This document shows positions 19,148-60,743 of a stretch of DNA of 64,000 bases, piece after piece. Below the pieces are notes generated by a model, which was not told the DNA's origin, ran no database searches, and saw nothing but the letters and a program-made list of their open reading frames with translations. Source of the stretch: an uncultured Bacteroidales bacterium. GTDB taxonomy: Bacteria > Bacteroidota > Bacteroidia > Bacteroidales > Paludibacteraceae. The translations under genes were made by a program, and so were the position numbers. Where the stretch lies: contig ONGK01000005.1 in assembly GCA_900317345.1 (NCBI GenBank), forward strand, positions 32,099-96,098. The letters are read 5' to 3'. How positions within the stretch are numbered: the stretch's first letter is position 1; every line of letters starts with the position of its first letter.

Positions 19148-22100
19148 CTAACGGACTAATATCCGTCCTTCTATTGTATAAACCTTCTCCCCGCGGAGGA
19201 TGTAGATAGTACCATTAATGAGCACCTTTGTACATTGTACATCGTCACTTTGTACATCTTCAAAACCTTGGCTCTTTTTCGTAGCTGTGAATTGCGCAGT
19301 GTAGTCTGCATCTGCGGAAGCCGCCACAATAGCCGGTGACCATCCGCTGAACTCGTAGGTGTAGTTGTCGTCTTCGGCGCGTGTAGGTGCTGCACCACTA
19401 TAAGCAGGCATTGTGCCTTCTTTTACCTGCGAAGATTGCAAAACCGTATTATCCCAGTTAAGGAAACGGATAGTGTAATACTCCGGTTGCGGTGTGTCAC
19501 CGGCACAGACAGCGGTTAGAGTTAGGTTCTTTATCTCCCATGTAGCGTAAGCAGAGGCAGTACTCTTATACTTAAATGCGAATACGGTGTTTGCGCCAAC
19601 CATCGACACTGGGACATTAATCGTCACATTAACAAATGTCCAGTTAGTGTTACTTGCGTATGGTGAGATAGTCAGTTGTTGCCACTGCGAGGCTGCTACG
19701 CTGCCTTTGTAATCGGGCGTCACCCACAAAGTGAGTTCGTCAGAAGGATTGCTTGCATAGCGGTGCGCGTGGTTGAAGGCGAGAGTGACAGTCTGCATGC
19801 CGTTCAGGTTCTTTGCAGGGGTCATCAGGTAAGCAGTATAGCCGCCTTGCTTCTTACCTACAGCACCGTAACTGCTGTTATAAGTCCATACAGACGTATT
19901 GTCTGTTGTGATTTCTCCCAAGCCGCTTCCGCCGGTCTGCAGCCAACTACCGCTGACATTCTCGCATTCAGAAACCGTTTTCTGAGTTGCCCTGTATTGA
20001 GCCGTGTAGGTGGTATTGGCGGTTGCAGGAACAATCACCGGATACCAGCCACTGAACTCATACGTGTACGTATCATCCTCCGGGCGCACAGGAGTGGTGC
20101 CTGTATATACGGGCGTTTCTCCTTCAAGAACCTGCGAGGACTGGAGTTCTGTACCATCGTAATTGACAAAAGTGATGGTATAGTAAGTGTCGCTTTCAAC
20201 GGTGACGACGCATGAAGCGGACAGACTGCCTGCATAGGCCGTGATACGCGCCGAGCCCTTTCTAATGGCCGTAACCAGCCCTGTATTCCGATCAACCGTA
20301 GCAAAAGAGGGCTTGTTGCTTGTCCATGTAACCGCCGGCAGGAGCGCATTAGCAGGCGTAGGTACAACCACCATTTGCACCGTCTCGCCCTCATAGAGGA
20401 AAACAGAGTCCTCGCTCAATGCGATAGAAGTGAGTTCCACTTCAACAGCATTTACAGTAAAGGTTACGGATGCCGTTAGCGTACCACAAGTAGCAGTTAC
20501 TGTCGCTGTTCCTGCAGCCAACGCTTCCACAACTCCATTTTCATTTACAGCCACCACGTTGGGTGCATCGGTTGACCATATTATCTCCGGCACGAACGAA
20601 GTTGCCGCAGGTTCTGTGGTGACGGTAAGCTTATTCACATCTCCGACTTCTACAACATGTTCGTAGTTCTCGTTGATAGCCATGCTTGTCGGGTTATATT
20701 GCAGAACCGTATAATTGCGTTGCGCGGATATACCGTTGTATTTGGGATTGGTAACGGTGACCGTGGCAGTTCCTTCTCCCACACATTGTACGACAGCCAG
20801 CGATGCACGATACGTATTACCGGAATAGACAAGCGTGGTATCGTCCTTGTAGGATGCGATTGTCAACACCGACTCATCGCTACTCTGCCATGCAAACGGC
20901 GCATAGGAAAGAGGTTGGGTTGTATATGCGCCCACGATATATTCCCAGTTAAGGGTATATTTGGCATTTGCGTCCTTTCCTTCTAGCCATTCCGCATCTC
21001 CTATGCGACGAGATTTGAGGACTGCCGGATAGTAATTATTTATGTTCGGTATTTTGATATTCAATGTGCATTTCTTGGCATAGTTGCCATCTTCGGTAGT
21101 CGCAGTAATAACAACCGTAGTGGTATAGCTGATAATACCCACGCGCACAAAGCCGTTTTCATCTACCGGCGCAATAGTCGGTTTGTTGGTAGACCAAGTA
21201 ATATTCTGATTGGCTGCATCTTCCGGTATAACGGAAGCATGCAATTGAATACTATCGCCAATCATGATATCTACGCTCGTTTCTTGCAGCGTGATGCCGG
21301 TTACTGTTATCGGTTCAGGACTATTTTCTACATTTGGGTGGAAGAGACGCAGGAACGGATAGCCGTCATTGATGGAGTCATTGCGTCCCCAGACAGTAGT
21401 GAAGTCCCAACCGGTGTAGTTGCTCATTGTGTGCAAGGAGAAGGAACTCTTTGCCGACGAGTCTGTGCCCGGTTCAGCCACCATTTCTCTATCGTAATAA
21501 ACAGAGGTAGCTGCTTTTGCCACACGTGTGTGCGATGCACTATAGCAGTTGGTAAACGTGATCGTGTTGCCGCTATTATCCGGTCCGACCAAACCGCCAC
21601 CTTTGAGGGCATAGGGGTATTTGACAGACGGGTATTGCGCAATGTTCACACGCGAATAACAATTGGTCATAGTCAGCGTATTCAACCTTGCTCCGGCTAA
21701 TCCGCCCGCGTAACCGTCATACCAAGCACTTGTGCCGGCTTCATTATCAAAAGCAATAATCTGACCTTCCGCGAAACAAGTCTCTATGCTACAGCCATTG
21801 ATTCGACCGGCTATCATACCTACGTGAGAGGCGTTTTGCGTGGCTGCGTTACATTTGGTAAAGAGCCATTCTCCCGGATGATTACGTCCGTCTATCACAG
21901 AAGCCTTGATTCCCAGATTACGAATAATCGCTCCTGCACCCACACTTCCGAACAAGCCCCAACCATATTTACCTCCGTAAACATCCGCCGGAGCAGCGTT
22001 TAACTCACAGTACAGACCATAAATGATGTGTCCGTTACCATCAAATGTGCCGAGAAAATCCGTTCCGTCCTCATCTGCACTTGGTTGTCCTATTGGCTTC

Positions 22101-25084
22101 CAAGGTACTGCATAAGCGTTCTTGCCCCAGTTCTGCCAGTTTGTCGTGTCATTTATGAAAATATCATTATCCAGCACAACCGTTTTGCCAGCAAAACTCA
22201 TTGGAGCCACCGTTTGAGTTGGATTAGTGTATCCTCCGCATGACTCCGCATAGTTCCATTCCCACAAGCCGTTTTGCATGACGGCAAAACCTCGCAATTG
22301 AGCAGCAGTCTTGATGTGATACGTCGTAGCAAATTCATTTTGGAACGGAGTCAAGTCATATATATTGCGATCGTCTGTAAGCCATTTCGCATACAAATCT
22401 AAATCGGTAAGGATGGTATCTTGGGTAAAATCGTAGAATTGGGTCAATCCGGCATCTTTGTACCAACCTGCGAAAATGTAACCATCTTTATGAGGGCGAG
22501 TAGGCGGGATAGCCAGACTGCCGACATAGAACGAAGCAGGCAGAATCTCTGTACCTCCGTTTGAATGGTATGTGATTACTGCACCGGGGGTGAAGGATGC
22601 ATCCGGGCTAACACGCGGATAGTCATTCTCGCGCCATTCCCAATAGTTCAAACGCAAATCTTCGCCGTGCGTACGATTCCATTGAGTCACGGCTTCGTTG
22701 TATTGGTTCACGCACTCTTTTGACTGCAACCACGCTGTGGTTCGTGATGTTGCATAATTCTGCAAAGCATTCGGATCAACGAATTCTTCTCCGTTGAAGA
22801 AATAATTGACCTTATATTCATACGCGTGATTAACAATGGCATATTGGTTGTTTACCGGCATATTACCGGTAAATAGATAATTAACGCAAGTGTCTCTTTG
22901 CCAAGAGTCGTTCGCGCCATAGACGGCTCCGGTATAATGGGTACCTGCACTGTTTCCATCCACATACGCGGAGGACGAACAGTTGAGCAAGCGTCCGTGC
23001 CATCCTCTGCCGGCTCCGATGAAAGCACCGGCATCTGCGGCATCTGCTCCGTTGACACGCACATCACCTGATGTGCGGCATTGAATAAGGATATAACCGT
23101 CAGGAACATCACCTGCTAAGATGCCGACAGCTCCTTTGGCCCGTACATAAGCGTCCGTAATAGCCAAATTGCGAATAGAAGTGAATACAATATCATCATA
23201 GGCTTCATCTATCTGTCCGAAGAAACCTTGCTTGGTCAGTGTATTGCTCAAATACATATTCTGCACCTCATGGAAACCGCCGTCATACGTGCCTCTAAAA
23301 TAGTCTTGCGTCGCATGTGAATAGAAGGAATGAGAGTGCTCTGTACCGATGGCCTGCCATTTAACAGGTGCGACCTCGCCCCACTCGCTTTGCGGTGCGT
23401 TTAACGCGATATCCGCTGTTTGCAGAATATACTCATTACGGAAATCGTAGCCGTGATTGGTAAGCCAAGATACATTTCTTAATTGCTCTTTGGTGGCCAC
23501 TTGATAAGGGTCTTCTTTGGTTCCTTGACCACCGGCAAACAGGACGGTCTTATCGGTTGTTCTTACACCGGTAGCACGCGGTAACTGACCTGCACGGTAT
23601 TCCCATTGGCTGGTACCCAAGAAAGAGGCAACCGCGTTAAGTGTGTCCACGAATGCCTGACTTTGCATATACGAAATGGTTACAGGATATCCTGTCCATC
23701 CGAGTTGGTTCTTGACAGAGGATGAAGGCAAACCGTTCGTATTCCAATAGCAGTTGATCTGTCGGCTCGGCACGCGTATCTCCCATCCTCCGCCATAATA
23801 TTCTGCCACAAAAGAATTGGCGCAAGCCATCATGTTTCCTGTGCTGACATCCGTGAGCGTAACAATTCCTGTCGCAAAACAGTTTGAGATAAATCCGGGT
23901 TCCGGTACACACGTGGCACAATTGCTTGGCACGCCATTCTTATACACGAACTGCGCCATGGATATATGACTACCGGAGTCTTCGCTTGTACCAAGGTCTG
24001 TTAAGTTTCCAGTAGCGTAGCACGATTCGATAAGACCAAGATTCTGATAGCAGAAACCGGCAATATAGGCCATTTGACTAAAACCGTCTCCTTGCAGGTT
24101 GCCAGAGGCGACGCACTCGCGGATGATACCTGTCGGTCTATTAACTTGCACAAAGCCGGATGCCATATGGTTACCTTGGTTCGTCTTGAACCACAAATAC
24201 ATGGTAGTGATATCCACCGCCGCGGTACATTGCTCAATCAGACCTTCGTTGGCATATGCCAACCCGGCAGCACCGCTAACGCCTTGCAGACTAAGTGTGC
24301 CGGTTGCTGAGCAGTTACGGATAATACCCGTCTCTTTATTCTCATGCACCAAGCCGCCTATCGCTAAACGCTTGGACGAAAGGGAAAGAGTGACACTGCT
24401 ATTTTCCAACAGACCGTAGTTGTTGGTTACCAATCCCGCAAGAGTTCCGGTAGTAGATTTCAACTCCGTATTGACGGCATGGCAATTACGAACAATGCCT
24501 TCAGGTGCAATTTCTATTGCCAACGGAGCGATATTCACACCACACACGTAGGAATTATTTAATGTCAGATTCTCCACACTACCGCTGATAACACCAAACA
24601 AGGCACGATACCATGAAGAGTAATCCAATTGTGCCAGATAAGCGTCTATATCAAAATCCGGATCTTCCGGTTCCCAGTCATCGCCCCAACCGAGACCATC
24701 TCCGTAATACATATTATATACGGTATGCCCGTCTCCATCGAAATAGCCTCTAAAATGGCATGTATCCGTATCTTCTCCGGCTATCCGCCAGATATGTCCA
24801 ATCGGCTCCCATTGTGGCCAATTGGCTGTATCAAGATTAGCAAAGTTCGTGAGGTAGATATCTGCTGTCAACTTAATGTACTTGCCGGCAAAGTCATTAG
24901 GGGTATCAGGGTCATTACACAGTTCAGCCAGACCGGCTAACTGTTCCGGCGTACTAATTAAATACGGATCGGTCTGTGTACCTGAACCACTGAAGGTTTT
25001 GTCACTCGTACCGTTCCAGTACGTTTGTGCCTGCATTGTCATGAATGACAGAAGTGCCAAAGCGAGCGTTAGAATCTGTTTCAT
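19148..25084 (-). CDS. giant secreted adhesin-like protein (GLUG-like beta-helical repeats, Listeria-Bacteroides repeat, Big_2 domains, choice-of-anchor-J-like domain, short C-terminal tail)
   Basis: 1978 aa. Signal peptide MKQILTLALALLSFMTMQAQ. Three modules open with G(S/Q)GT..DPY.I.T.EQL and continue with GGLV/AGL..N.G.I..C repeats. Flg_new-type repeat ITYHSNGGTEILP...GYIFAGWYKD...LYAKW. About four Big_2 units (ITVTGITLQETSVDIMIGDSIQLHASV...). Two YT(I)xFxNxDxTxLQSSQVxEG...YTYEFSGW repeats. Confidence 0.8.
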   Translation of the reverse strand: MKQILTLALALLSFMTMQAQTYWNGTSDKTFSGSGTQTDPYLISTPEQLAGLAELCNDPDTPNDFAGKYIKLTADIYLTNFANLDTANWPQWEPIGHIWRIAGEDTDTCHFRGYFDGDGHTVYNMYYGDGLGWGDDWEPEDPDFDIDAYLAQLDYSSWYRALFGVISGSVENLTLNNSYVCGVNIAPLAIEIAPEGIVRNCHAVNTELKSTTGTLAGLVTNNYGLLENSSVTLSLSSKRLAIGGLVHENKETGIIRNCSATGTLSLQGVSGAAGLAYANEGLIEQCTAAVDITTMYLWFKTNQGNHMASGFVQVNRPTGIIRECVASGNLQGDGFSQMAYIAGFCYQNLGLIESCYATGNLTDLGTSEDSGSHISMAQFVYKNGVPSNCATCVPEPGFISNCFATGIVTLTDVSTGNMMACANSFVAEYYGGGWEIRVPSRQINCYWNTNGLPSSSVKNQLGWTGYPVTISYMQSQAFVDTLNAVASFLGTSQWEYRAGQLPRATGVRTTDKTVLFAGGQGTKEDPYQVATKEQLRNVSWLTNHGYDFRNEYILQTADIALNAPQSEWGEVAPVKWQAIGTEHSHSFYSHATQDYFRGTYDGGFHEVQNMYLSNTLTKQGFFGQIDEAYDDIVFTSIRNLAITDAYVRAKGAVGILAGDVPDGYILIQCRTSGDVRVNGADAADAGAFIGAGRGWHGRLLNCSSSAYVDGNSAGTHYTGAVYGANDSWQRDTCVNYLFTGNMPVNNQYAIVNHAYEYKVNYFFNGEEFVDPNALQNYATSRTTAWLQSKECVNQYNEAVTQWNRTHGEDLRLNYWEWRENDYPRVSPDASFTPGAVITYHSNGGTEILPASFYVGSLAIPPTRPHKDGYIFAGWYKDAGLTQFYDFTQDTILTDLDLYAKWLTDDRNIYDLTPFQNEFATTYHIKTAAQLRGFAVMQNGLWEWNYAESCGGYTNPTQTVAPMSFAGKTVVLDNDIFINDTTNWQNWGKNAYAVPWKPIGQPSADEDGTDFLGTFDGNGHIIYGLYCELNAAPADVYGGKYGWGLFGSVGAGAIIRNLGIKASVIDGRNHPGEWLFTKCNAATQNASHVGMIAGRINGCSIETCFAEGQIIAFDNEAGTSAWYDGYAGGLAGARLNTLTMTNCYSRVNIAQYPSVKYPYALKGGGLVGPDNSGNTITFTNCYSASHTRVAKAATSVYYDREMVAEPGTDSSAKSSFSLHTMSNYTGWDFTTVWGRNDSINDGYPFLRLFHPNVENSPEPITVTGITLQETSVDIMIGDSIQLHASVIPEDAANQNITWSTNKPTIAPVDENGFVRVGIISYTTTVVITATTEDGNYAKKCTLNIKIPNINNYYPAVLKSRRIGDAEWLEGKDANAKYTLNWEYIVGAYTTQPLSYAPFAWQSSDESVLTIASYKDDTTLVYSGNTYRASLAVVQCVGEGTATVTVTNPKYNGISAQRNYTVLQYNPTSMAINENYEHVVEVGDVNKLTVTTEPAATSFVPEIIWSTDAPNVVAVNENGVVEALAAGTATVTATCGTLTASVTFTVNAVEVELTSIALSEDSVFLYEGETVQMVVVPTPANALLPAVTWTSNKPSFATVDRNTGLVTAIRKGSARITAYAGSLSASCVVTVESDTYYTITFVNYDGTELQSSQVLEGETPVYTGTTPVRPEDDTYTYEFSGWYPVIVPATANTTYTAQYRATQKTVSECENVSGSWLQTGGSGLGEITTDNTSVWTYNSSYGAVGKKQGGYTAYLMTPAKNLNGMQTVTLAFNHAHRYASNPSDELTLWVTPDYKGSVAASQWQQLTISPYASNTNWTFVNVTINVPVSMVGANTVFAFKYKSTASAYATWEIKNLTLTAVCAGDTPQPEYYTIRFLNWDNTVLQSSQVKEGTMPAYSGAAPTRAEDDNYTYEFSGWSPAIVAASADADYTAQFTATKKSQGFEDVQSDDVQCTKVLINGTIYILRGEKVYTIEGRILVR

Positions 25085-25164
25085 ACGTTTGTTTATTAAT
25101 AGGGTGAATGTTGTTTTTCGGTTGATTATAGATACGAAAAAGCGCGGGCTTTCGTTCGCTTCAT

Positions 25165-25304
25165 TTGATTACTTGAGGTCCTAGACTTACCTTAATACTT
25201 CAAATTTACGCACGTAAAACTCACGCTGGTACGTGAGCGTGCATAAACCGTGACTTGAAGTATTAATGATTCTTGTAAACTTGTCTAGGGTTTCAAGTAA
25301 TCAA
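25165..25304 (-). other. 140-nt imperfect inverted repeat / extended hairpin in the 5' leader of the giant gene
   Basis: Outer arms 25165-25186 ttgattacttgaggtcctagac and 25283-25304 gtctagggtttcaagtaatcaa. Perfect inner arms ttaatacttcaa (25192-25203) and ttgaagtattaa (25255-25266). Apical CTCACG-ctggta-CGTGAG. Confidence 0.75.
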
Positions 25305-25415
25305 GTTTTTCGGCTTATTACGCTTTTCTTTGGCGCTCGCTTGCGCCATGTATTATGTTGCCCTAATTTAACGTCTCGGGCGGGGGACGAAGGAGTTATA
25401 CCAACCTTTGCGGCG

Positions 25416-25423
25416 CAAAGGTA
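25416..25423 (-). promoter_or_regulatory. -7 box (TACCTTTG) for the giant gene; implies a leader of roughly 320 nt
   Basis: The minus strand reads cttgcatatatcaaaaaaatgttgTACCTTTGcgccgc. Confidence 0.6.
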
Positions 25424-25512
25424 CAACATTTTTTTGATATATGCAAGAAAAAAGAGAAAAAATGATGCAATCAGGTTTGCCAAAGGATTCTGTGACTATT
25501 ACGTGAGTATCT

Positions 25513-25572
25513 AAATAGTTCGTTAATAATTCGTTAATAATTCGTCAATAGTTCGTCAATAGTTCGTCTTAA
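25513..25572 (-). repeat. Array of five phased 11-bp repeats (copy A of the shared upstream module)
   Basis: The plus strand reads ttcgttaataa ttcgttaataa ttcgtcaatag ttcgtcaatag ttcgtc. Read on the minus strand it is nearly identical to 46091-46150. Confidence 0.9.
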
Positions 25573-25694
25573 TATGCATGAAACACGCTGCTATTTTTGG
25601 AGTAACTGTAGTACTTCTTAGCCAAAAACTACGCTTGTGCAAGCACAGACGATAATTTTTTGCTAAAAACCTTGCAAATTTAAAAAAATTGTAG

Positions 25695-43661: not shown

Positions 43662-44265
43662 TTTAGGAGGCGTGCTCATTAACCTCAATGTGCCGCGTTG
43701 TGTTGATAACTTCAAGCGTCTCATGGGCGAGGATAACGTGCGCAATATCCTTGGTATAGACGATGAAGGAGAAGGCGTAGTGGCGGTTAGTGCGGCTAAG
43801 CGTCAGCTCATGCACGATTATGAATACGGCAATATATCTACGGATGAGTTTCTGCAAGCCGTCCTGTCTTATTGCCATCCCGGCACAACGATTGATGATG
43901 TGCGCAATGCATGGATGAGTATGTTGGCGGATTTACCGCAGGAAAAGCTCGATTTCATCGGTGCTTTACGCGCTGCTGGATATAAGACATACCTCCTTTC
44001 TAACTCCAACCAGATGCACTGGGATCCCATTTTTGAGCAGTTCCACCTCGAGCGGTATTTCGATGGAATCTATGCCTCTCATCACCTGCATATGGCGAAA
44101 CCGAATAAAGAAATATTCGATTTCATCGAGAAAAATGCGCATATCGACTCTGCTCACACTATTTATGTAGATGATCTTGAGAAGAATCGTAAGGCCGGTG
44201 AATCCTTCCTCGGTTGGACCACTTGCGCTTCTGTCGATGAACTGAAGCAACTCTTAAACTTTTGA
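43636..44265 (+). CDS. HAD-superfamily hydrolase (subfamily IA)
   Basis: Start set at ATG 43636 (MERNTIVFDLGGVLINL, DxG motif I). LLSNSN (motif II) and YVDDLEKN (motif IV). Confidence 0.75.
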   Translation: MERNTIVFDLGGVLINLNVPRCVDNFKRLMGEDNVRNILGIDDEGEGVVAVSAAKRQLMHDYEYGNISTDEFLQAVLSYCHPGTTIDDVRNAWMSMLADLPQEKLDFIGALRAAGYKTYLLSNSNQMHWDPIFEQFHLERYFDGIYASHHLHMAKPNKEIFDFIEKNAHIDSAHTIYVDDLEKNRKAGESFLGWTTCASVDELKQLLNF

Positions 44266-44303
44266 ACTCTTGAACCCTTAAACTCTTATACTCTCTAACT
44301 AAT

Positions 44304-46034: not shown

Positions 46035-46071
46035 CGCATACGTGATATCTCCCTTCGCGTATGCGTTTTTT
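46035..46071 (+). terminator. Rho-independent terminator closing the metG-to-CBM9-like unit
   Basis: Stem CGCATACG/CGTATGCG, 15-nt loop, then TTTTTT. Confidence 0.75.
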
Positions 46072-46090
46072 CTGCTATCTGTACCGTTCT

Positions 46091-46150
46091 TAAGACGAAC
46101 TATTGACGAACTATAGACGAATTATTAACGAACTATTAACGAATTATTAC
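46091..46150 (+). repeat. Array of five phased 11-bp repeats (copy B of the shared upstream module)
   Basis: taagacgaa ctattgacgaa ctatagacgaa ttattaacgaa ctattaacgaa ttattac. Confidence 0.9.
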
Positions 46151-46374
46151 TATAGGCACACAATACTCACGCAATACCCACACCGGAGTCATACCCTACT
46201 TTGGAGCACCTCAAAGGCTACGATGCTTGCTCTTTTGCTACCTTCTTTTTCGAAACATTACGAAATAACAAATGAAACATATAATATGCTCATTATCACT
46301 AATTTATGTTTTATTGTTTCGAAAATATGCTCGATAACATATTTTAATGTTACGAAAACTCCGAAAAAATGGTG

Positions 46375-46382
46375 TAATTTTG
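46375..46382 (+). promoter_or_regulatory. -7 box (TAATTTTG) for the AgaS-to-beta-helix unit
   Basis: ccgaaaaaatggtgTAATTTTGcggcg, 32 nt upstream of ATG 46414. Confidence 0.6.
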
Positions 46383-51166: not shown

Positions 51167-53524
51167 GTGAAAAAAATCGCTTTCATAGTACTCTTCGTAG
51201 CAGCGGCGCTTCATGCGTCAGCTGCTACGTGGTATGTGCGTACAGACGGACAGGACGGCAATGACGGCAAGTCCTGGGAGAACGCGCAGGCGTCTATCCG
51301 TCTGGGCATAGATAACTGTCGCGTGGGCGACACGCTGCGCATAGAGGAGGGTACGTATTATGAAGGCATCATCCTCAAGGAGGGAATAACGATTATCGGC
51401 GAAGGACAGGTTATCCTCGATGGTACCGGCCTGAATACGCGTCTTATCTCCTGTGTCGCTGATTGCAAACGGCCTACGCGTATCGAGCATATCACCCTGC
51501 AGAATGCCCGTCATAACCAGCGAGGCGGAGCAGCGTGGCTGCGTGGAAAGGTCGTCATGCGGCATTGCGTCATTCGCGGATGCAGCGGTTTGCAGTGCGG
51601 AGGTGTGCTTATCAAAGGTGACCTGCCGGAAGCCTCAGCACTCGGTGCACGACTCGAAGATTGTCTCATTTACAACTGCTCGGCTACGGGGCATGACTGG
51701 CCCGATGCAGGCGGAGTGGCGAACTTCGATGGTGTACTGAGGAATTGCATCATCGCTAATAACTATGGAGATCGATACGGAGGTATCCACTCCGAGAGTT
51801 CGGTCTATAGTTGTACCATGTGGGGAAACAAGTCCGAGTATGGCTTTGTGGACCCATCCAATTATGTCTCGGATGAGAGCACGTCCGGCATGAGCCGCGC
51901 GGACGAAGGTTTCGAAGACCATTTCTTTGCGAAACCCTGGCTGGACGCGAATAACGAAGCGGAGAACGGTCCGCATTTCCGTGACCCATCAACGTTTGTC
52001 GGGGTGCCCATTACCGATGCGGAGCAGGCTATCATGCTGGCAGCCGACTATACCATCGGCGCGCCGACGCACCGAATCGCCTCCATGCCGCCTGCTTCAC
52101 CGCGCGACTATGCCCCAACGAATCTTGTCAAGATACCTGAACCCTTACCCTATACAGTTCCTTCTTTCATCGGTCATCTCCTAGACAATACAGCACCGCT
52201 CGTGCCGAGAGAGCAACCCTATTGCATGGTGGCTACCATCAATGGTGACCCCAAGACCCGAATGGGCTTCTGCTGGTTTACCAACGAAGGTGTCACAAAC
52301 GGCGAAGTGCAAATCATTGCTAAAGCCAATGCTACAGAAGAGGACTTTAATCGTGAAATCTCAAATCACAAATCACAAATCACAAATGTCGTAGCCACCG
52401 CAACGACCACTCCGCCATTGCACTACGCCATCTCCTCTTCGGGTATTCTGAAGAAGGCGAAGATAGATAAAAGCACCGCTTTCCGCTATGTTAGCCATAA
52501 AGCGCTGGCTCAGAACCTCACGCCCGGAACGGATTATTCCTATCGCGTCGGCTATGAGGGACATTGGAGCGAGATAGGCCATTTCCGCACCGCGGATGCA
52601 GAGCAGGGCGAATTTTCCTTCATCTACATGACCGATAGTCATATACAAGATAAGGAATACGTGGATGAGGCGCGCTTGTGTGCGGATGCGGTCGCGCGTA
52701 ATGAGCGCAAAGCACGCTTCTGTGTCTTCCCGGGCGACTTTGTCGATACCGGTACGGACAATAACTCCGAATGGGAATGGGAGCGCTGGTTCGAAGAAGC
52801 GCTTAAGCCCGTTATTATGGCGATGCCGATTGTTCCGACCGATGGTAACCATGACGACAGCCCGCTGCTTAACTATTCCTATCATTTCAATACCGATACC
52901 ACATTTAATTTAGAGACGAAAATCCGTCCGCAGTTTGCGGGCATCAACTATAGTTTCTGCTATGGAAATATGCAACTCATTGCATTCTCCATGCAGGATT
53001 TCTGGCGAGGAGAATATAACTATACTTCCGGCACCTCGGAGTTCCTCACGCGCGATTTGGGCGGTTGGTTCAAACGGCAAGTGGCGGCAGCGCCGGATGC
53101 TACATGGCGTGTAGGCTTGGTGCATAAGAATCTCTTCTCCGGCTCTGACCATCAGCGCGATAAAGAGACCCCGCTGCTTCGTGCTACCATGTTGCCGCTG
53201 ATGAAGGAGTGTAATATCAATCTTGTCCTGCAGGGTCATGATCATTGCTATGAAGTCATCGGTCCCGTGGACTCTACGCTCTATTTCATTGGTGCTACGT
53301 GTGGCGCGAAACGCTATACACCGCTCACGCGCGAAGAGATGGACGCATCCAAGCATATCCACCATGTGGAGAACTATTTCGACCTCTTCTCGCATCTCGC
53401 GCAACCCGGCGCACCGAGTTATACCCGCGTGACTGTGAAGAAAAACCAGCTGTTGCTCGAGACCTTCAAGGTCCTTCCCAACGGCCAAACAGAATTGTTT
53501 AACACCATTTATCTAAATAAATAA
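51167..53524 (+). CDS. secreted beta-helix + purple-acid-phosphatase-like metallophosphoesterase (paralog P1)
   Basis: GTG start with signal peptide MKKIAFIVLFVAAALHASA. Beta-helix opening TWYVRTDGQDGNDGKSWENA plus C..NC/NN repeats. Metallophosphoesterase motifs MTDSH, PGDFV, TDGNHD, GLVHKN, QGHDHCYE. Confidence 0.8.
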   Translation: MKKIAFIVLFVAAALHASAATWYVRTDGQDGNDGKSWENAQASIRLGIDNCRVGDTLRIEEGTYYEGIILKEGITIIGEGQVILDGTGLNTRLISCVADCKRPTRIEHITLQNARHNQRGGAAWLRGKVVMRHCVIRGCSGLQCGGVLIKGDLPEASALGARLEDCLIYNCSATGHDWPDAGGVANFDGVLRNCIIANNYGDRYGGIHSESSVYSCTMWGNKSEYGFVDPSNYVSDESTSGMSRADEGFEDHFFAKPWLDANNEAENGPHFRDPSTFVGVPITDAEQAIMLAADYTIGAPTHRIASMPPASPRDYAPTNLVKIPEPLPYTVPSFIGHLLDNTAPLVPREQPYCMVATINGDPKTRMGFCWFTNEGVTNGEVQIIAKANATEEDFNREISNHKSQITNVVATATTTPPLHYAISSSGILKKAKIDKSTAFRYVSHKALAQNLTPGTDYSYRVGYEGHWSEIGHFRTADAEQGEFSFIYMTDSHIQDKEYVDEARLCADAVARNERKARFCVFPGDFVDTGTDNNSEWEWERWFEEALKPVIMAMPIVPTDGNHDDSPLLNYSYHFNTDTTFNLETKIRPQFAGINYSFCYGNMQLIAFSMQDFWRGEYNYTSGTSEFLTRDLGGWFKRQVAAAPDATWRVGLVHKNLFSGSDHQRDKETPLLRATMLPLMKECNINLVLQGHDHCYEVIGPVDSTLYFIGATCGAKRYTPLTREEMDASKHIHHVENYFDLFSHLAQPGAPSYTRVTVKKNQLLLETFKVLPNGQTELFNTIYLNK
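52356..52387 (+). repeat. heptanucleotide repeat (AAATCAC) inside P1 coding sequence
   Basis: AAATCTC AAATCAC AAATCAC AAATCAC AAAT: three perfect units, one degenerate unit and a partial unit. It encodes ISNHKSQIT, which is absent from paralogs P2 and P3. Confidence 0.9.
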
Positions 53525-53538
53525 AAACACGTATTGTT

Positions 53539-55305
53539 ATGAAAAAGAAATTCTATTATCTGTTGATGCTTGTATGCTGCATCTGTCTTGTAGCTTGTGA
53601 GAAACCGGTTGAACCCCAACCAGGACCGGGACCGGATCCGGAACCGGGACCCGACACAACAGCCGTTGTGCCAAAGACAGAGTGGGAGAAAGCCGATTCT
53701 GCGTATACGGAGCATGACTACACGATTCCGAGCCACACAGCCCTTAAACTGGCTATCCATGTTTGTGCTGCCAACCCGACCGAGGAGAATCTGGAGGCGA
53801 TGCGCCAAAAGATCACGGAGTTGCAGCCCAAAGAGATGCCTTACTGCATGGTAGCTACGATTAACGGTGACCCGCAGACGCGTATGGGTTTTGCTTGGTT
53901 CACGAATGATAGCATCTTTGATGGCGAGGTGCAGATTGTTGCTATGAAGGATGCTACGGAAGAGGACTTCAACGGAGGAAACGTGACGACGATAAAAGCG
54001 GAAGCAACTCGCACCAAGAAAGCGCTGCGTTATGTCGGTCAGTGCTCGTATATCTATACGAAGGCTGACCTATCGGCTGGAACCAAATATTTCTATGTCA
54101 GCCATAAGGCGCTGGCGGAGAATCTGACACCGGGCACCGACTATTCTTGGCGTGTGGGATATGGCGACTATTGGAGCCCGATTGCCCAATTCCGTACAGA
54201 GGATGCCGCGCAGGGTGAGTACTCGTTCATCGTTATGTCCGATAGTCATATCATGAACAAGGAATATGTGGATTATGCACGTCGTTGTGCCTTAGCGGCT
54301 GTCAAGACCGTGCCGGATGCACGCTTCTGCTGTTTCCCCGGCGACTTCGTGGAGGATGGCACACTGGCGAACTCCGAATGGGAGTGGGAGCGCTGGTTTG
54401 AGGAGTCGATGGAGCCTATCATCAAAAGGATGCCTATTGTGCCTACAGATGGTAACCATGACGACAGCCCGAATATCAACTATACCTACCATTTCAATAC
54501 AGATAGATCGTTCAACGAACTTACTACCAAGCCGCAATTCGAGGGAATTACCTATAGTTTCGTCTATGGTGATGCACTCTTCCTCGTCTTCTCTATGCAG
54601 GATTTCTGGCGCTTGGATTATAGCTATGTGGACTGGAATTCAGCTTATCTGACCGATTATCTGGGATATTGGTTCCGTCGGGAAACAAGCAAAAACCCGA
54701 ATACCAAGTATCGTATCTCGCTTGCGCACTTCAACCTCTTCTCCGGTTCCGATCACTCGACCGATGAAGAGCCGCCTTTGTTCCGTGCTTGTATGCTGCC
54801 GGTCTTCAAGGATTGCGAGATTGATGTTGCGCTCCAAGGACACGATCATACTTATGAGGTTATAGGTCCGGTTAATCCCGATAGTCTCACACCTATTCTC
54901 TCCGCTATTTCTGATCGTCAGCAAGTTGCAGGTGGTTCGGAGAAGAACATGACAGGATATGAGGGAGGTACATATCGCACGGACGATGGTACGTTCTATT
55001 TCATCGGCGCTACCTGTGGCCGTAAACGCTATTCTCCGCACAGCCGTGAGCGGATGGAGAGAGAATATACGGATGACCCGGATGTGTTGAGAGATGGCAA
55101 ACATCATAACGTGAAGAACTATTTCGACCTCTTCACCGGTATGTTCGGTCAGCCCGGTAATCCTTGCTTCACCAAAATCACGGTGAAGGATGACTGCCTC
55201 GAGTTCAACTCGTATACAGCGGATGATGATCGCGGCAATGTGTCTTTGCTCAACACTATGCGTGTTGTCCGCACCAAAGACCACTCTATCCCGATGCTGC
55301 AATAA
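53539..55305 (+). CDS. lipoprotein purple-acid-phosphatase-like metallophosphoesterase (paralog P2)
   Basis: Lipobox CLVAC followed by the Pro/Gly linker PQPGPGPDPEPGPD. Same core as P1 and P3 (MSDSH, PGDFV, TDGNHD, QGHDHTYE). No beta-helix and no C-terminal tail. Confidence 0.8.
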   Translation: MKKKFYYLLMLVCCICLVACEKPVEPQPGPGPDPEPGPDTTAVVPKTEWEKADSAYTEHDYTIPSHTALKLAIHVCAANPTEENLEAMRQKITELQPKEMPYCMVATINGDPQTRMGFAWFTNDSIFDGEVQIVAMKDATEEDFNGGNVTTIKAEATRTKKALRYVGQCSYIYTKADLSAGTKYFYVSHKALAENLTPGTDYSWRVGYGDYWSPIAQFRTEDAAQGEYSFIVMSDSHIMNKEYVDYARRCALAAVKTVPDARFCCFPGDFVEDGTLANSEWEWERWFEESMEPIIKRMPIVPTDGNHDDSPNINYTYHFNTDRSFNELTTKPQFEGITYSFVYGDALFLVFSMQDFWRLDYSYVDWNSAYLTDYLGYWFRRETSKNPNTKYRISLAHFNLFSGSDHSTDEEPPLFRACMLPVFKDCEIDVALQGHDHTYEVIGPVNPDSLTPILSAISDRQQVAGGSEKNMTGYEGGTYRTDDGTFYFIGATCGRKRYSPHSRERMEREYTDDPDVLRDGKHHNVKNYFDLFTGMFGQPGNPCFTKITVKDDCLEFNSYTADDDRGNVSLLNTMRVVRTKDHSIPMLQ

Positions 55306-55324
55306 TCCTTTAAATATAATTATT

Positions 55325-58300
55325 ATGAAACGATTCTTATTTCTCTTGACTCTCGCTACAGCCGTGCTGTGCGCGAATGCAGCTAATCATTACGTTAGCC
55401 AGACTAATGGTAATGATAGTAATGATGGTTTGTCTTGGGAAACAGCCATGCAAACTATCACCGCAGGATTTAGTGCCTGCTCGGATGGTGACACGCTGTT
55501 TATAGCCGCAGGCACATACGGCGAGCGTGTAACGGTTAAAAGCGGTTCGTTTGTCTCTATGATGGGAGGCTACGAAGCTGCAACAGGTATGCGTGACCCC
55601 GAGGTGTTCAAAACCATTATGGATGGTTCGGAGCTCGGCAAAATCTTAATCAAAGCAGAAGCAGAACCGACTATCCCGCTGCTCTATGATGGCTTGATTT
55701 TGCAGAACGCGGAATACTCGTCAAACGGTGCCGGGGTGTATATGCGCGGTAATATGACGGTCAATAACTGTATCATCCGTAATTGCAATTCGCAAGGTGG
55801 CGGAGGTGGTATCTATGTCGATATCGCGGATAAAACCTTGCCTACTGCTATCAGCAACTGCTTGATAGAGTTGTGTACGTCTAATGGTTCCGGTGGTGCT
55901 ATTCATAATACCGGTGCGCTCATTGAGAATTGTATTATTCGCGGTTGCTCCGGTACGTATGGTTCTATCGTTCTCCGTAATGGAGGTGTTGTACGCAACT
56001 GTGTGTTGTATAATAACACGGGCGGTGATAGCTGGCCTAACTCGGGCGGTATATATAATCCGGACGGTATGGTGGTCAATTGTACGTTTGCGAATAACGC
56101 CGGTGCTAAATATGCCGGAATCCACTCTGATAACAGAGTATTCAACTCTGTCATGTGGGGAAACAGAGGCGAAGAGGGTTTTGCCGACCCTGCCAACTAT
56201 ATTGCAGGTGCTCCGTCCAGCAATAATATAGCCGATCAGGGTTTTAACAGCGAGTCATTCGTAAGTCTCTCGCTCAACGAAGATAATAATGCAGTAGACG
56301 GTCCGCATTTCGTGGCGCCGACCAATTTTGTCGGTGTTCCTCAAAATGCTGCTCAGATAGCCATTATGCAAGCCGCAGACTGGTCTATCGAAGCGGGTTC
56401 GTTCCTCATTGACAAAGGTTTGGCATCGCAGGCTCCGGAAACGGATATCAACGGCGTGGTTCGTCCTAAAGGCGACGGAGTGGACGTTGGTGCGTATGAG
56501 TATGACCCCAATGCACCCGTCATTCCTTTGCAGGGATTCAATATCTATCAGGATTCTGTCTTTATCAATGTAGAGAGCATGGAGGCCTTAAGTGTGCTAT
56601 TCACGCCGCGCAACGCAACGAATAGAACGCTGAATTGGGTAAGCGATAATCCTGCTATTGCTACGGTAGATAATCATGGAACAGTGGTCGGCGTTGCAGA
56701 AGGACAGACCATCATCCGCGCAACAAGCGTAGATGGAGGGTTCACCGATACCGTGGTAGCAGTCATCTCTCCCAAACCACCGGTTTACTATCCCGTAGAG
56801 GTTTTGGCTGCTGACTCGCTCTATCCGATGGAGAACTACACGGTGCCTTCCTTCATTCCATTCTTGGTAGCCAAAGAGGCTGCGCGTATCGATAGCTTCT
56901 CTGCTACGCCGGAGGAAATAGCTTCTATCGCAGGTAAGCTTGAGGTGATGTACGCTGAAGCAGCGAAATTGGTGAGCAAGGAAGAACCGTATAACATGGT
57001 GGCTACGTTCAACGGCAACCCGCGTACACATATGGGCTTTGCATGGTTCACCAATGAAGGCATTACCGAAGGAAAAGTGCAAATCATAGCGAAAGAATAT
57101 GCCACAGCAGCGGACTTCGAGGGTGACCAAGTGCTCACATTGAATGCGGTAGCTACCACAACGGTGCCGTTGCGCTATGCTGTTTCCACGTCCGGTCTGC
57201 CTAAAGCGACGCGCTTGTCGCCTAAGACGGCCTTCACCTATGTCAGCCACAAGGCACTGGCTACGAATCTTATGCCGGGTACCGCCTATTGCTGGCGTGT
57301 GGGATATGAAGGGCACTGGAGCAAGATTGGCCATTTCCGCACACAAAATGCAGCGCAAGGCGAATATTCCTTCATCTATATGTCCGATAGCCACATCCAG
57401 GATGCTGAGTATGTGGAGAATGCTAAATGGTGCGCCACCACGGCTGCCAATACGGTGCCGGAAGCACGCTTCTGTCTCTTCCCGGGCGACTTTGTAGAAA
57501 CAGGAACCGACAATAACTCCGAGTGGGAATGGGAGCGTTGGTTTGAGGAATCTATCAAACCTGTTATCATGAAGATGCCGATTGTGCCGACCGATGGTAA
57601 CCACGATGATAGCCCACTGCTCAACTACGATTACCATTTCAATACCGATTGGGGATTTGCTAACGCTGCGCAGACCAAACCGCAGTTCAAGGGTATTACC
57701 TATAGTTTCGTCTATGGCGATGTGCTCTTCCTCGTGTATTCGCTCCAAGACTGGTGGCGCGCACATGGTAGTAGTGAAACGGGCATGACTTCGACCTATC
57801 TGTCAACGGATGTGAAAAACTGGTTCCTCGAGCAGTGCGCTGCTCACCCGAATACCAAGTATCGTGTCACGCTGTCGCATAAGAATATCTTCTCCGGTTC
57901 CGGTCACTCTGTAGATGGTGAGATACCGATGTTCCGTGAAATTATGTTGCCGATTCTCAAGGAGTGCGAGATAGACCTCGCTATCCAGGGACACGACCAC
58001 TGCTATGAGGTTATCGGTCCGGTGGACTGGGATAGCCAAACCGTTGTGGAAGGCTCTGTAGCGAATGTGGTGGATACCATTGTTGACACCAATACCAATA
58101 TAAACGGCAAGTGGGGTGGCGAGTTCACCACGGATGATGGTACCATGTATTTCATCGGTGCTACCTGCGGACGCAAACGCTACTATCCGTACAGCCGTCA
58201 GAAGATGGAGGAGAAATACACCACCGATCCGGAATTGTTGTTCGATGGAAGTCACCACAATGTGAAGGATTATTTCGATCTCTTTACCGGTTTGTTCGGT

Positions 58301-58576
58301 CAGCCTGGGGCTCCCTCTTTCTCCAAGTTCACGGTGAAGAATGATGGCATCGAGGTGAATTCCTATACTGCTTCCGCAAGCGGAAAAGCAACTCTTATCA
58401 ATACCATGAAGGTAAAGCGCACCAAACCGCATACCGTTCCGTATCTTGGTATTAACGAAGTAGAGGTGCAGATGAAAGAAGGCGAGAAATTCATCCGCAA
58501 CGGACAGATGTTCATCCTTAAGAATGGACAGATATACAACGTCCTTGGCCAGAGGGTAGAGAAAATGGAACAATAA
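55325..58576 (+). CDS. secreted beta-helix (choice-of-anchor-Q-like) + Big_2 + metallophosphoesterase + C-terminal tail (paralog P3)
   Basis: Track ORF 55190-58576 trimmed to ATG 55325 (MKRFLFLLTLATAVLCANA). HYVSQTNGNDSNDGLSWETA, ...DINGVVRPKGDGVDVGAYEYD, Big_2 (NWVSDNPAIATVDNHGTVVGVAEGQT). Core motifs MSDSH/PGDFV/TDGNHD/QGHDHCYE. Tail ...KFIRNGQMFILKNGQIYNVLGQRV. Confidence 0.8.
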   Translation: MKRFLFLLTLATAVLCANAANHYVSQTNGNDSNDGLSWETAMQTITAGFSACSDGDTLFIAAGTYGERVTVKSGSFVSMMGGYEAATGMRDPEVFKTIMDGSELGKILIKAEAEPTIPLLYDGLILQNAEYSSNGAGVYMRGNMTVNNCIIRNCNSQGGGGGIYVDIADKTLPTAISNCLIELCTSNGSGGAIHNTGALIENCIIRGCSGTYGSIVLRNGGVVRNCVLYNNTGGDSWPNSGGIYNPDGMVVNCTFANNAGAKYAGIHSDNRVFNSVMWGNRGEEGFADPANYIAGAPSSNNIADQGFNSESFVSLSLNEDNNAVDGPHFVAPTNFVGVPQNAAQIAIMQAADWSIEAGSFLIDKGLASQAPETDINGVVRPKGDGVDVGAYEYDPNAPVIPLQGFNIYQDSVFINVESMEALSVLFTPRNATNRTLNWVSDNPAIATVDNHGTVVGVAEGQTIIRATSVDGGFTDTVVAVISPKPPVYYPVEVLAADSLYPMENYTVPSFIPFLVAKEAARIDSFSATPEEIASIAGKLEVMYAEAAKLVSKEEPYNMVATFNGNPRTHMGFAWFTNEGITEGKVQIIAKEYATAADFEGDQVLTLNAVATTTVPLRYAVSTSGLPKATRLSPKTAFTYVSHKALATNLMPGTAYCWRVGYEGHWSKIGHFRTQNAAQGEYSFIYMSDSHIQDAEYVENAKWCATTAANTVPEARFCLFPGDFVETGTDNNSEWEWERWFEESIKPVIMKMPIVPTDGNHDDSPLLNYDYHFNTDWGFANAAQTKPQFKGITYSFVYGDVLFLVYSLQDWWRAHGSSETGMTSTYLSTDVKNWFLEQCAAHPNTKYRVTLSHKNIFSGSGHSVDGEIPMFREIMLPILKECEIDLAIQGHDHCYEVIGPVDWDSQTVVEGSVANVVDTIVDTNTNINGKWGGEFTTDDGTMYFIGATCGRKRYYPYSRQKMEEKYTTDPELLFDGSHHNVKDYFDLFTGLFGQPGAPSFSKFTVKNDGIEVNSYTASASGKATLINTMKVKRTKPHTVPYLGINEVEVQMKEGEKFIRNGQMFILKNGQIYNVLGQRVEKMEQ

Positions 58577-58595
58577 TTTTTAATTTATTAAAATT

Positions 58596-60743
58596 ATGAA
58601 AAGGTTATTTTCATTTTTCGCTGCAATGCTGGTGGCGTTCGTAGCGAATGCAGCGGTCATTAATATCAATACCAATACCCCCGATGCACTCCGTAAGGCG
58701 CTGGCCGGTGCTGCCAGCGGTGATATTATTGTTATGGCTGCCGGAACATATGTAGAATCCAACGGCGATTATATTGCTTTCACCGGCAAGGAGGTAACGG
58801 TGATGGCGGAACCGGGCGCGGAAGTTATTGTTGTGCCCCAAGTGCCGGTTCGTTTGAAATCCGGTGCACGCGCAGAGTTCATCAATATCAAGTTTGACTG
58901 TGGTCATATTAAGGACAAAGGCTCGTACACTGAGATTATTGTGCCGGCTGATGGCACAGCCAATAAACGCGTAATCCTCGATGGATGTGAGTTCTACGGC
59001 TGGAAGCAGAAAGATTATGCCATTGTTCACACCCGCACGGATCGTCAGTTGGATACGCTGGTTATCAATAACTGCTATTTCCACGACAACCTGTATAATT
59101 GTGTATGGCTGAGATATCCAAGTATCGCTTGCTTGCGCATTACCAATTCCACTTTTACCAACGTCGCTACGGATGCAGCCGCACCTTCAATCGGTGTGAT
59201 TCAAGTCGATGCTACGAGTGGAGATATGCTCATCGACCATTGTACGTTCTACAACTGTGAAGCGAAGAATACCGACTATGGCGCCATTAAGATACCGGGC
59301 GGAGCTCCGATTGTTTCCAATTGTATCTTTGCTATGCCGGAGGAGTATGCTAACGGCCGCGCTATCCATAATGCAGCCGGAGAGGTTAAAAACTGCCTCA
59401 CCTTCAACTACACATCTGATGAGAACACCGGTATCCATTCCGGTCCTACCATCACTGCTTGCCTCCAGGCTAATCCGCTCTTCGTGGATGCTCCTAACGG
59501 AGACTTGCGTATTCAGGGTGGTTCTCCGGCGTTAGGAGCAGGCACGGAAGGATCTGACCTCGGTGACCCGCGCTGGATTCCGCAGATGGAGTATTATCTC
59601 GCGGGAAGTATGACCGAATGGGGACCTGATCCGTTGTATAAACTGGTGAAGAATCCGGAGAATGAAGAGGAGTATATGATTGCCAAAACGTTTTATGCCG
59701 GCGACCAGTTTAAGATTGCCAAGTCCGATGGTTTGACTATCGCGAATACAGACTGGTATCCATCCGGCATGGACAACAACTATCAGATTACTGCTTCCGG
59801 CAACTATACCGTATATTTCCGTCCGGACGGACAAGGCGGCGAAGGATGGCACGAAGGCTATATCTATGCGCAAGCAGAGAGTTTAGGTCCGTGGGACAGT
59901 TGGTTTGGCGATGCAAGCATGCAGCAGGAGACCAATTCGTATCTCGCTTATGATCCTATCGCTGAGAAAGTCACGGTCTTCATCCGTAATGACAAGAACG
60001 GACAATGGCAGGCGCAGGTGAAATACCAAGGTATGCCTGCTGAGGCGGATAAATGCTATCATGTGGCCCTCAAGATGAAGTCAAACCATGATATCACCGG
60101 CATCACCCTCAAATGGCAGGACGACAATAATACGCCGAATGTGATTTATGAGAACCAGTCCATCAGCCTCGCTGAGGACGAAGAGTTTATCTATGATGCC
60201 GTAGTAGCAGGAGTGGTAGGAGAGAAGGGTAGCAATGGTATCCTTGTTCTTGACTTCGGTTTCGCCCACAACGGCGATATCATTGAGGTCTATGGTGTGA
60301 CTATTGAAGAAACAGCATGTCCTGCTCCTCCGATTTACTACCTCGTGGGTTCGATGACCGACTGGGCAGCAGAAGCGGAATACCTCTTTGCGGAGAACCC
60401 GGAAACGGAAGGCGAATACTTCCTTACCACCACTCTCGCCGTAGGCGATGCTATCAAAGTGGTGGGTGTTCAGGATGATGACGAGACCTATTATCCGAAT
60501 GGTTTGAGCAATGAGTATGTAGTGGACGCTGCGCATGCAGGGGAGACCATCGTTTACTTCCGTCCTGCCGGCAATGCGGAATGGGCTGCGTTTGGCGGTT
60601 ACTTCTTCATCCCGGATAACGGACAGGGAATTGAGGATGTCAATATCGATACCAAAGCCACAAAGCTTATCCGCAATGGACAGCTCTTCATTCGTAAGAA
60701 TGGTAAGATTTATAACGTTATCGGGCAGCAAATCGCCCGATAA
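58596..60743 (+). CDS. secreted beta-helix protein with CBM-like modules and C-terminal tail
   Basis: 715 aa. Signal peptide. The N-terminal roughly 300 aa look beta-helical (GTYVESNGDYIAF, DHCTFYNC, NCIF, ANPLFVDAPNGDLRIQGGSPALGAG). Two YYL(A/V)GSMT.W modules flank a CBM4/9-like domain. Tail KLIRNGQLFIRKNGKIYNVIGQQIAR. Confidence 0.7.
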   Translation: MKRLFSFFAAMLVAFVANAAVININTNTPDALRKALAGAASGDIIVMAAGTYVESNGDYIAFTGKEVTVMAEPGAEVIVVPQVPVRLKSGARAEFINIKFDCGHIKDKGSYTEIIVPADGTANKRVILDGCEFYGWKQKDYAIVHTRTDRQLDTLVINNCYFHDNLYNCVWLRYPSIACLRITNSTFTNVATDAAAPSIGVIQVDATSGDMLIDHCTFYNCEAKNTDYGAIKIPGGAPIVSNCIFAMPEEYANGRAIHNAAGEVKNCLTFNYTSDENTGIHSGPTITACLQANPLFVDAPNGDLRIQGGSPALGAGTEGSDLGDPRWIPQMEYYLAGSMTEWGPDPLYKLVKNPENEEEYMIAKTFYAGDQFKIAKSDGLTIANTDWYPSGMDNNYQITASGNYTVYFRPDGQGGEGWHEGYIYAQAESLGPWDSWFGDASMQQETNSYLAYDPIAEKVTVFIRNDKNGQWQAQVKYQGMPAEADKCYHVALKMKSNHDITGITLKWQDDNNTPNVIYENQSISLAEDEEFIYDAVVAGVVGEKGSNGILVLDFGFAHNGDIIEVYGVTIEETACPAPPIYYLVGSMTDWAAEAEYLFAENPETEGEYFLTTTLAVGDAIKVVGVQDDDETYYPNGLSNEYVVDAAHAGETIVYFRPAGNAEWAAFGGYFFIPDNGQGIEDVNIDTKATKLIRNGQLFIRKNGKIYNVIGQQIAR

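Follow-up and report, generated by a model that had tools for sequence, protein, structure and literature searches.

The two arrays of 11-bp repeats in the window (the whole 64-kb stretch of DNA analyzed here) are best read as promoter-less orphan paralogues of the iteron-like leader of a gene for a small basic protein, p127. At its home locus this leader would be autoregulatory, and the copies in the window would act at most as extra or decoy sites; a probability of about one half is assigned to this reading. The initial annotation had taken the arrays for phased upstream sites of a winged-helix (OmpR/PhoB-type), perhaps phosphate-responsive regulator co-activating an adhesin-like gene and an AgaS/phosphoesterase unit. 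This co-regulatory interpretation proved largely wrong, while the description of the repeats themselves was accurate.

Sequence and organization of the two arrays

A repeat search of the window returned an 86-nt inverted pair, 25487-25572 on the minus strand and 46090-46175 on the plus strand, with 85% identity and a separation of 20,517 nt. Within this pair, Tandem Repeats Finder defined 5.0 copies of an 11-nt unit on the left (25514-25568, 93% matches) and 5.0 copies on the right (46095-46149, 86% matches). Both arrays consist of five in-phase units of the form ACGAAYTATWN followed by a common tail. With at most one mismatch allowed, ACGAAYTATTR had 12 matches in the window, 10 of them within the two arrays, compared with 4.3 +/- 2.0 (maximum 10) in shuffled sequence. 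Three ACG triplets at an 11-nt period (the array motif can also be written as ACGNNNNATNN x3) were confined to these two arrays in the window, with a mean of 0.47 in shuffles. The array sequences read exactly as first quoted, and comparison within the window upheld both their homology to each other and their strict 11-bp phasing. The flank ATACTCACG(C/T)AATA was likewise common to both copies (46163-46176 and 25510-25497), and each copy is oriented toward its downstream gene and lies upstream of a TAnnTTTG -7 box. For such an array, a multi-site, head-to-tail protein-binding platform is a reasonable candidate reading.

The coordinates of the module parts and of the neighboring -7 boxes are listed in Table 1. 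The left head lacks the TAnnTTTG -7 box that precedes the same stretch in p127 loci, and the left tail is homologous to the tail before the p127 start codon, e.g. AGATAATCACGAGATAACCTCACG in locus L048. The right head starts approximately 8 nt past the terminator T-run of a CBM9 gene, and the right tail resolves into two looser units of about 11 nt, CACACAATACTCACGCAATACCCACAC. A CTTTGG element had also been described as following the shared flank. It is present in both copies (46199-46204 and 25485-25480), but because its offsets from the flank differ and other family members are without it, CTTTGG is probably not part of the element. As a -7 box it misfits TAnnTTTG, and as a remnant of an insertion sequence end it was rejected after blastn of an IS3-type end against the window gave chance matches only.

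Table 1. Module parts and associated -7 boxes in the window
Feature	Coordinates	Strand	Description
Left head	25568-25590	-	cagcgtgtttcatgcatattaag; homologous to the initial 23 nt of p127 transcripts (cagcgtcTTTCATGCTTCCAAAC)
Left A-array	25513-25567	-	5 x 11 bp: ACGAACTATTG, ACGAACTATTG, ACGAATTATTA, ACGAATTATTA, ACGAACTATTT
Left tail	25487-25512	-	AGATACTCACGTAATAGTCACAGAAT; two looser ~11-nt units (AGATACTCACG TAATAGTCACAG)
Giant-gene -7 box, TAccTTTG	25416-25423	-	Gene 19148-25084; 89 nt past array; outside module
Right head	46079-46094	+	ctgtaccgttcttaag; similar to the L064 head (TTTG followed by ctgtaccttttacaagactaaac); without -7 box
Right A-array	46095-46149	+	5 x 11 bp
Right tail	46150-46183	+	ctataggCACACAATACTCACGCAATACCCACAC; 11-nt period, 2.5 copies (Tandem Repeats Finder)
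SIS/AgaS-type operon -7 box, TAatTTTG	46375-46382	+	ATG at 46414; 225 nt past array; outside module

Genomic context in the window

A divergent region houses the left copy, which has on one side a minus-strand gene for a 1978-aa protein with Big_2 / Listeria-Bacteroides repeats and on the other a plus-strand GAF-mdh unit. The right copy is preceded by the terminator of the CBM9 gene and followed by a SIS/AgaS-type operon, whose products are SIS/AgaS-like, GatZ-like, AXE1 and PfkB proteins together with three purple-acid-phosphatase paralogues. The latter are encoded in tandem at 51167-58576, combine purple-acid-phosphatase N-terminal and metallophosphoesterase domains, and share DNA blocks of 63-82% identity. 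No p127 gene is found within the 64-kb window. Both downstream units had been said to encode tail-bearing secreted proteins; this was not borne out, as Por_Secre_tail and T9SS C-terminal domain models matched neither the C-terminus of the giant protein, nor those of the three phosphoesterases, nor a DUF5123 protein (window 19148-19600 and 53072-60740).

Several further features of the intergenic DNA were recorded. The giant adhesin-like gene has a leader of approximately 330 nt from -7 box to ATG (25085-25415, minus strand) containing several hairpins, for which Rfam gave nothing above threshold and a weak GP20-b match (E 0.6). A terminator-like hairpin with a T-run is located on the minus strand at 25629-25648, in the interval from the GAF promoter to the left module; it has no minus-strand gene upstream, and a TAaaTTTG match occurs on the minus strand at about 25682-25675. 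Other tandem repeats in the window comprise an 11-nt GAGTMCGAGAT-type repeat (2974-3014) and an 8-nt AACTCTTA repeat (44249-44294), both intergenic, and a 7-nt AAATCAC repeat (52356-52387) inside the open reading frame 51167-53524. Related genomes contain many more short tandem repeats, located just past terminators, and short minisatellites seem to be a general trait of intergenic DNA in these genomes.

That the inverted pair might delimit a 20.5-kb transposon or an invertible segment was considered and rejected. The DNA between the copies is housekeeping in character (mdh, aminotransferase, SDR, LD-carboxypeptidase, MetRS and others), and the pair is therefore not a transposon. Furthermore, all spanning contigs from other samples have the identical arrangement, and no inversion variant appeared among approximately 16 contigs.

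The module family across genomes

A pattern scan for ACGAANTATNNACGAANTATNNACGAA across 185,579 species genomes yielded 47 loci. Approximately 21-25 of these were from metagenome-assembled genomes of uncultured Bacteroidales, Paludibacteraceae and Prolixibacteraceae from rumen and pig gut, and the remainder were unrelated perfect repeats. The contigs of seven further p127 homologues and one metagenome pattern scan were added. The module common to this family has three parts, namely a head, 3-8 tandem 11-bp units of the form ACGAAYTATWN, and a tail. In a set of 102 units taken from 22 distinct arrays, no variation occurred at positions 1-5 and 8, position 6 was C or T only and position 10 was A or T only, a constraint that is partly biased by the search pattern and was the same in four arrays found via the protein. 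Unit sequence drifts in concert between lineages, as in the variants ACGAATGATAT (L048), ACGGAAGATNN (L069) and ACGATAGATAT (L051), while the 11-nt period, kept in all of them, and the ACG..AT skeleton persist. Copy number varies by strain, with five units in L071 versus four in L073, and five at the right window locus versus six in the allele of rumen strain L080. Copies within one genome are near-identical, including the 'free' positions and their order, and differ between genomes; gene conversion without selection would explain this within-genome identity equally well.

Searches of the literature returned nothing on this repeat sequence or on repeats of 11 bp in Bacteroides. Among viral contigs (IMG/VR), L059 / L060 has a stretch of 2.5 units of ACGAATTATAC that stops 14 nt short of an ATG; this may be either a chance repeat or related to the array and phage-borne.

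The module is the leader of the p127 gene

All 12 distinct p127 loci (L004, L005, L010/31, L018, L048, L051, L063, L065, L067, L069 and L071/73) have the module in the interval from the Bacteroidetes -7 box to the start codon of p127, a basic protein of approximately 126 aa. Wherever the region upstream of a p127 gene was intact, promoter and ATG were separated by an 11-nt array and tail. Most of these loci are ordered as promoter, 23 conserved nt (cagcgtcTTTCATGCTTCCAAAC), array, tATTAGTATAAC-type tail and ATG, with the -7 box 23 nt before the first unit and the end of the array 19-24 nt before the ATG. In five loci from the genome scan, the first unit is preceded by TAccTTTG at 23 nt or, in L010/L031, by a same-strand stop codon at 21 nt, and the ATG follows the last unit at 19-35 nt. 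L010/31 is the exception without a -7 box, and its module must be transcribed because it begins so close behind the stop codon of the upstream same-strand gene. L051 has a longer head, and its array is preceded by a tail-like stretch. The head, array and tail of both window copies can all be aligned to p127 leaders, and the homology to these leaders begins exactly where the transcript would start.

The nature of the leader was examined further. A leader peptide initiated at the ATG in TTTCATGC was rejected, since this ATG is absent in L048, L065 and L018 and the length of the upstream reading frame is erratic. A structured RNA was rejected as well: no Rfam match at the gathering score or at E <=1 covered either window module, and the arrays fold weakly and inconsistently. 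One sub-threshold Rfam match upstream of the left copy, to Clostridiales-1 (17.2 bits; gathering score, 48), overlaps only the first base of that copy.

It is doubtful that the module works as RNA only, in the form of a small RNA or an unstructured 5' leader and in the role of a translation enhancer or of a sponge for an RNA-binding protein. Such a role would suit the constant placement of the module on the sense strand between transcription start and ATG in p127 loci, the 19-24 nt from array end to ATG in most of them, and a composition that is A-rich, G-poor and devoid of a stable fold; translation in Bacteroidetes is Shine-Dalgarno-less. It would also suit the orphan copies of L064 and L026, which have their own -7 box, the orientation bias of orphans described below, and L020, in which the module is followed by a strong terminator to give a free-standing unit of approximately 190 nt. 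However, Rfam searches gave no match, DNA geometry suits the strict 11-nt period and fixed 23-nt promoter offset equally well, and the window copies have no promoter, so that under an RNA-only role they would be inert unless read through.

A functionless minisatellite that resides in the p127 leader and was spread by ectopic recombination is unlikely. Tandem repeats of 5-11 nt are numerous in neighboring intergenic regions (2974-3014 and 44249-44294 in the window, as well as related loci), array copy number varies by strain, and two orphans sit where nothing is regulable, all of which a minisatellite would account for. It would not account for the presence of the array in all 12 distinct p127 loci at p127 identities down to approximately 63%, for offsets to promoter and ATG that are fixed in most of these loci, or for variation in only 3 of 11 positions, with an ACG..AT skeleton that outlasts concerted changes of the unit.

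The p127 protein and its gene neighborhood

A total of 418 homologues of p127, none of them named, fall into 151 clusters at 50% identity, with a median pI of 10.1. Profile searches (Pfam, NCBIfam, PADLOC and PHROG) gave no match. The AlphaFold model (pLDDT 78.6) predicts a disordered N-terminus, a basic beta-hairpin (residues 22-40; RIVMRTRYGRTHAYAY) and a helical bundle of four helices, and Foldseek searches of this model against PDB and BFVD gave no match with E below 0.6. A ribbon-helix-helix or other known DNA-binding fold was not found in the model, by Foldseek or by profiles. Remote homologues are other small basic proteins and a few GNAT / methyltransferase fusions of doubtful meaning. 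From charge and gene context we infer that p127 may bind nucleic acid. A phage or plasmid origin of p127 was rejected, as tblastn gave no match in either collection and the pattern matches on viral contigs were unrelated perfect repeats.

The p127 gene is monocistronic. It is often followed on its 3' side by type III and type ISP restriction-modification genes, an EcoRI-type methylase with GmrSD/HNH, RES, DUF3791 with DUF1016, or DUF4417, and defence-type cargo of this kind was seen in L004, L010/L031, L051, L065, L069 and L071. In sequence context, the p127 gene looks like the fixed 5' edge of a variable island. No partition NTPase (ParM/ParA) was present among the genes downstream of p127. 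Unit type correlates with p127 sequence, a correlation that is confounded by phylogeny. Distant small basic paralogues of p127 (110-126 aa, starting MAKxEP..KGKYAK..) were observed in tandem or nearby in L005 (3784-5717, minus strand) and L004 (approximately 570-830, minus strand); the one examined has a similar promoter start (caccgtctttc), another leader and no array.

Orphan copies at other loci

The other copies of the module, including both in the window, are not accompanied by p127. These orphans precede gyrA, recA, DUF4421, SBF transporter, endo/exonuclease and mdh genes, and 11 of 14 orphan loci are co-oriented with the next gene (binomial p of about 0.03 against a crude 50% null). A search for further arrays and a listing of the genes downstream had been proposed as a check on co-regulation. 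The arrays do recur, mostly in co-orientation, but the genes they adjoin, p127 among them, are diverse and extend beyond the two window units, to which the arrays are therefore not specific. In L027 and L020, the orphans lie between convergent genes or antisense to both neighbors with no co-oriented downstream gene, a placement that fits relics better than regulatory sites. The -7 box is kept in the L026 and L064 orphans, decayed in L022 and L025, and absent from the window copies.

Orthologous orphans were compared in two pairs of loci, L011/L036 and L012/L044, in which the array is identical and the tail mosaic. This pattern fits gene conversion from the p127 copy. The L011/L036 orphan occupies the same locus between MFS and DUF4421 genes that in L071-73 holds promoter, module, p127 and six genes. 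The mdh locus of L003 was rejected as an orthologue of the window GAF-mdh locus because its 160-aa neighbor has no relationship to the GAF protein. In three independent loci, an IS3-family element (left end TG(T)ACCCC..TTTTTTGGACACTTTAATTGATT; orfA begins MRKKVPL) is inserted at the module, abutting the tail in L024 and L026 (bases 1-130) and splitting the array from p127 in L054 (4640-6000). Such insertions suggest one route to orphaned leaders. A 25-nt remnant of an IS3-family end stands ahead of the ATG in L051 (5975-6000).

Spread of the module itself as a non-autonomous BrickBuilt-type mobile element, i.e. a leader-minisatellite-tail MITE dispersing through intergenic regions, is very unlikely. 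Its organization as leader, tandem repeat and tail, the intergenic dispersal, the assembly breaks inside the array and the occurrence of copies at breaks in gene order are shared with such elements. No terminal inverted repeats flank either window copy, the sole inverted repeat found there being the upstream terminator hairpin at 46035-46065, and no target-site duplication is definable. Exact-pattern matches number 2-3 per genome, a lower bound since degenerate copies were left out of the search, compared with 19 copies for BrickBuilt. Positions are stable across strains and in related species (L011/L036, L012/L044 and L010/L031), and one copy per genome is tied to a specific gene. A transposon end or an array of integrase arm-type sites was considered as well; with the exception of a Xer-like gene 3 kb away in L069, no recombinase gene was found beside the modules.

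Orphans could also be more than leftovers. In uncultured Bacteroidales of rumen and gut, p127 and its 11-nt iteron leader might constitute an autoregulated system for nucleic-acid binding that has not been described before, positioned where variable defence islands begin on their 5' side (restriction-modification of type III and type ISP, GmrSD, RES and others). The orphans, the window pair among them, would then be genuine trans-targets through which the amount of p127 is coupled to the promoters of surface-protein and sugar-catabolism genes and of gyrA and recA. This is regarded as rather improbable.

The window loci in other strains and sister species

Rumen metagenome contigs encoding an identical SIS or GAF protein have both copies in place in the same arrangement. 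Several contigs from other samples end inside the array, as is expected because the repeat is multi-copy. In sister species with a SIS (AgaS-like) protein of 92, 90 and 89% identity, no module is present upstream of the AgaS-type operon, while the TAatTTTG -7 box of the operon is kept. The comparison of filled and empty sites is between strains that all have both copies and sister species that lack the right copy but also differ in upstream gene order, a different gene preceding the operon. By this comparison, the right-copy module is a lineage-specific addition at a gene-order break, outside the conserved control region of the operon. Upstream of the AgaS-type operon the sister species have other conserved motifs, TTTCGAAA boxes and TGTTTCGAAAATATGCT..(A)GCATAT. 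These motifs occur at 46250-46345 in the window and in L092-L099, approximately 40-60 nt before the TAatTTTG -7 box, and are likelier as the putative operator or activator site of the AgaS-type operon.

These observations bear directly on the OmpR/PhoB-type reading, which now appears extremely improbable. It had drawn on the resemblance of five direct repeats with an 11-bp period, a conserved core and an A/T-rich spacer to tandem pho boxes, and on the co-orientation of both copies with downstream genes whose -7 boxes they precede; a purple-acid-phosphatase-domain gene near L025 and an endo/exonuclease/phosphatase gene after L029 would agree with it. However, the canonical place of the module, as the p127 leader, is beyond the -7 box, whereas an OmpR/PhoB-type activator site would belong on the other side. 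Shared control of the giant gene and the AgaS unit is disfavored by the unequal distance from array end to -7 box (89 versus 225 nt) and by the sister-species operons without the module. Neighboring genes elsewhere (gyrA, recA, DUF4421, SBF transporter and mdh) have no phosphate-regulon theme. The 'non-core' positions are the same within a genome and different between genomes, unlike independent transcription-factor sites. Phased A-tract bends, the other explanation offered for the 11-bp period, do not apply to a unit that contains no A-tract. The evidence thus removes the reading of a phosphate-type regulon in this uncultured rumen bacterium.

Proposed function of the leader array

In the favored reading, that of orphaned p127 leaders, the array would be a head-to-tail cooperative platform for a sequence-specific nucleic-acid-binding protein. 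The best and natural candidate binder is p127, because the array is an obligatory component of the p127 leader and because p127 combines small size with a very basic character. At the home locus, binding would result in p127 autoregulation. This could occur on DNA, with the array as an operator or roadblock just past the transcription start (from approximately +24), or on RNA, by cooperative coating of the unstructured, Shine-Dalgarno-less mRNA leader and occlusion of the start codon. Orphans would have arisen by rearrangement, loss or IS insertion at p127 loci, with gene conversion maintaining their uniformity. On this view, the two copies in the window, upstream of the adhesin-like gene and the AgaS-type operon, would serve at most as extra or decoy sites or would be relics, and neither unit would have them as a conserved control region.

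The pairing of an 11-nt-phased repeat leader with a protein family of 418 homologues, none annotated, is unreported and widely conserved. If p127 binds the array, it would represent a new small regulator or nucleoid-type protein and provide a handle on the control of defence-island-adjacent genes in Bacteroidales. The arrays also break metagenome assemblies and vary in copy number, making them a practical strain marker as well as a source of misassembly.

Comparison with known systems

Pho boxes overlap or replace the upstream promoter element, and several sites can be arranged in tandem. The module resembles them in having approximately 7 conserved bp and 4 A/T-rich bp per unit, an 11-bp period and tandem arrays. 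It differs in its position, which is after the -7 box at home and 89-225 nt before a -7 box in the window, in having no Pho-regulon genes nearby, and in variable positions that are homogenized per genome.

Iteron arrays include parC of plasmid R1, bound by ParR, with two sets of five direct 11-bp repeats, and the heptad arrays bound by the omega protein of pSM19035. The likeness lies in four to eight head-to-tail 11-bp repeats beside the promoter of a gene for a small basic protein, in variable copy number, and in autoregulation as the expected logic. Direct repeats of approximately 11 bp adjoin the promoter of the candidate binder in the 12 p127 loci, while both window copies are without p127 nearby. 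In contrast to iteron arrays, the array is downstream of the promoter, within the transcribed leader, and the module is chromosomal with additional orphan copies. Compared with ParR, the p127 model has no predicted ribbon-helix-helix fold and no match to a solved structure, there is no partition NTPase, and p127 is a candidate binder only.

Autogenous control through an unstructured repeat leader is known from the gene 32 mRNA of phage T4, and autogenous control also operates through ribosomal-protein leaders. Like the T4 gene 32 case, the p127 locus combines a small basic protein with a leader of its own in which unstructured A/U-rich repeats extend toward the start codon. The repeats of the module are longer and strictly periodic, orphans occur at other loci, and single-strand binding by p127 is hypothetical.

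In BrickBuilt of Porphyromonas gingivalis the repeat unit measures 23 nt; the element possesses terminal inverted repeats, occurs in 19 copies per genome and is tied to no home gene (PMC4596501). It shares with the module an occurrence in Bacteroidales, an intergenic location, the succession of leader, tandem repeat and tail, variable repeats and a possible adjacency to promoters (PMC4596501). The module has an 11-nt unit instead, no terminal inverted repeats and 2-3 detected copies (a lower bound, as above), one of which leads a specific gene. By its defining features the module falls within none of these families, be it iterons, pho boxes, BrickBuilt or autogenous leaders; by analogy, it would work most like an iteron array or autogenous leader control.
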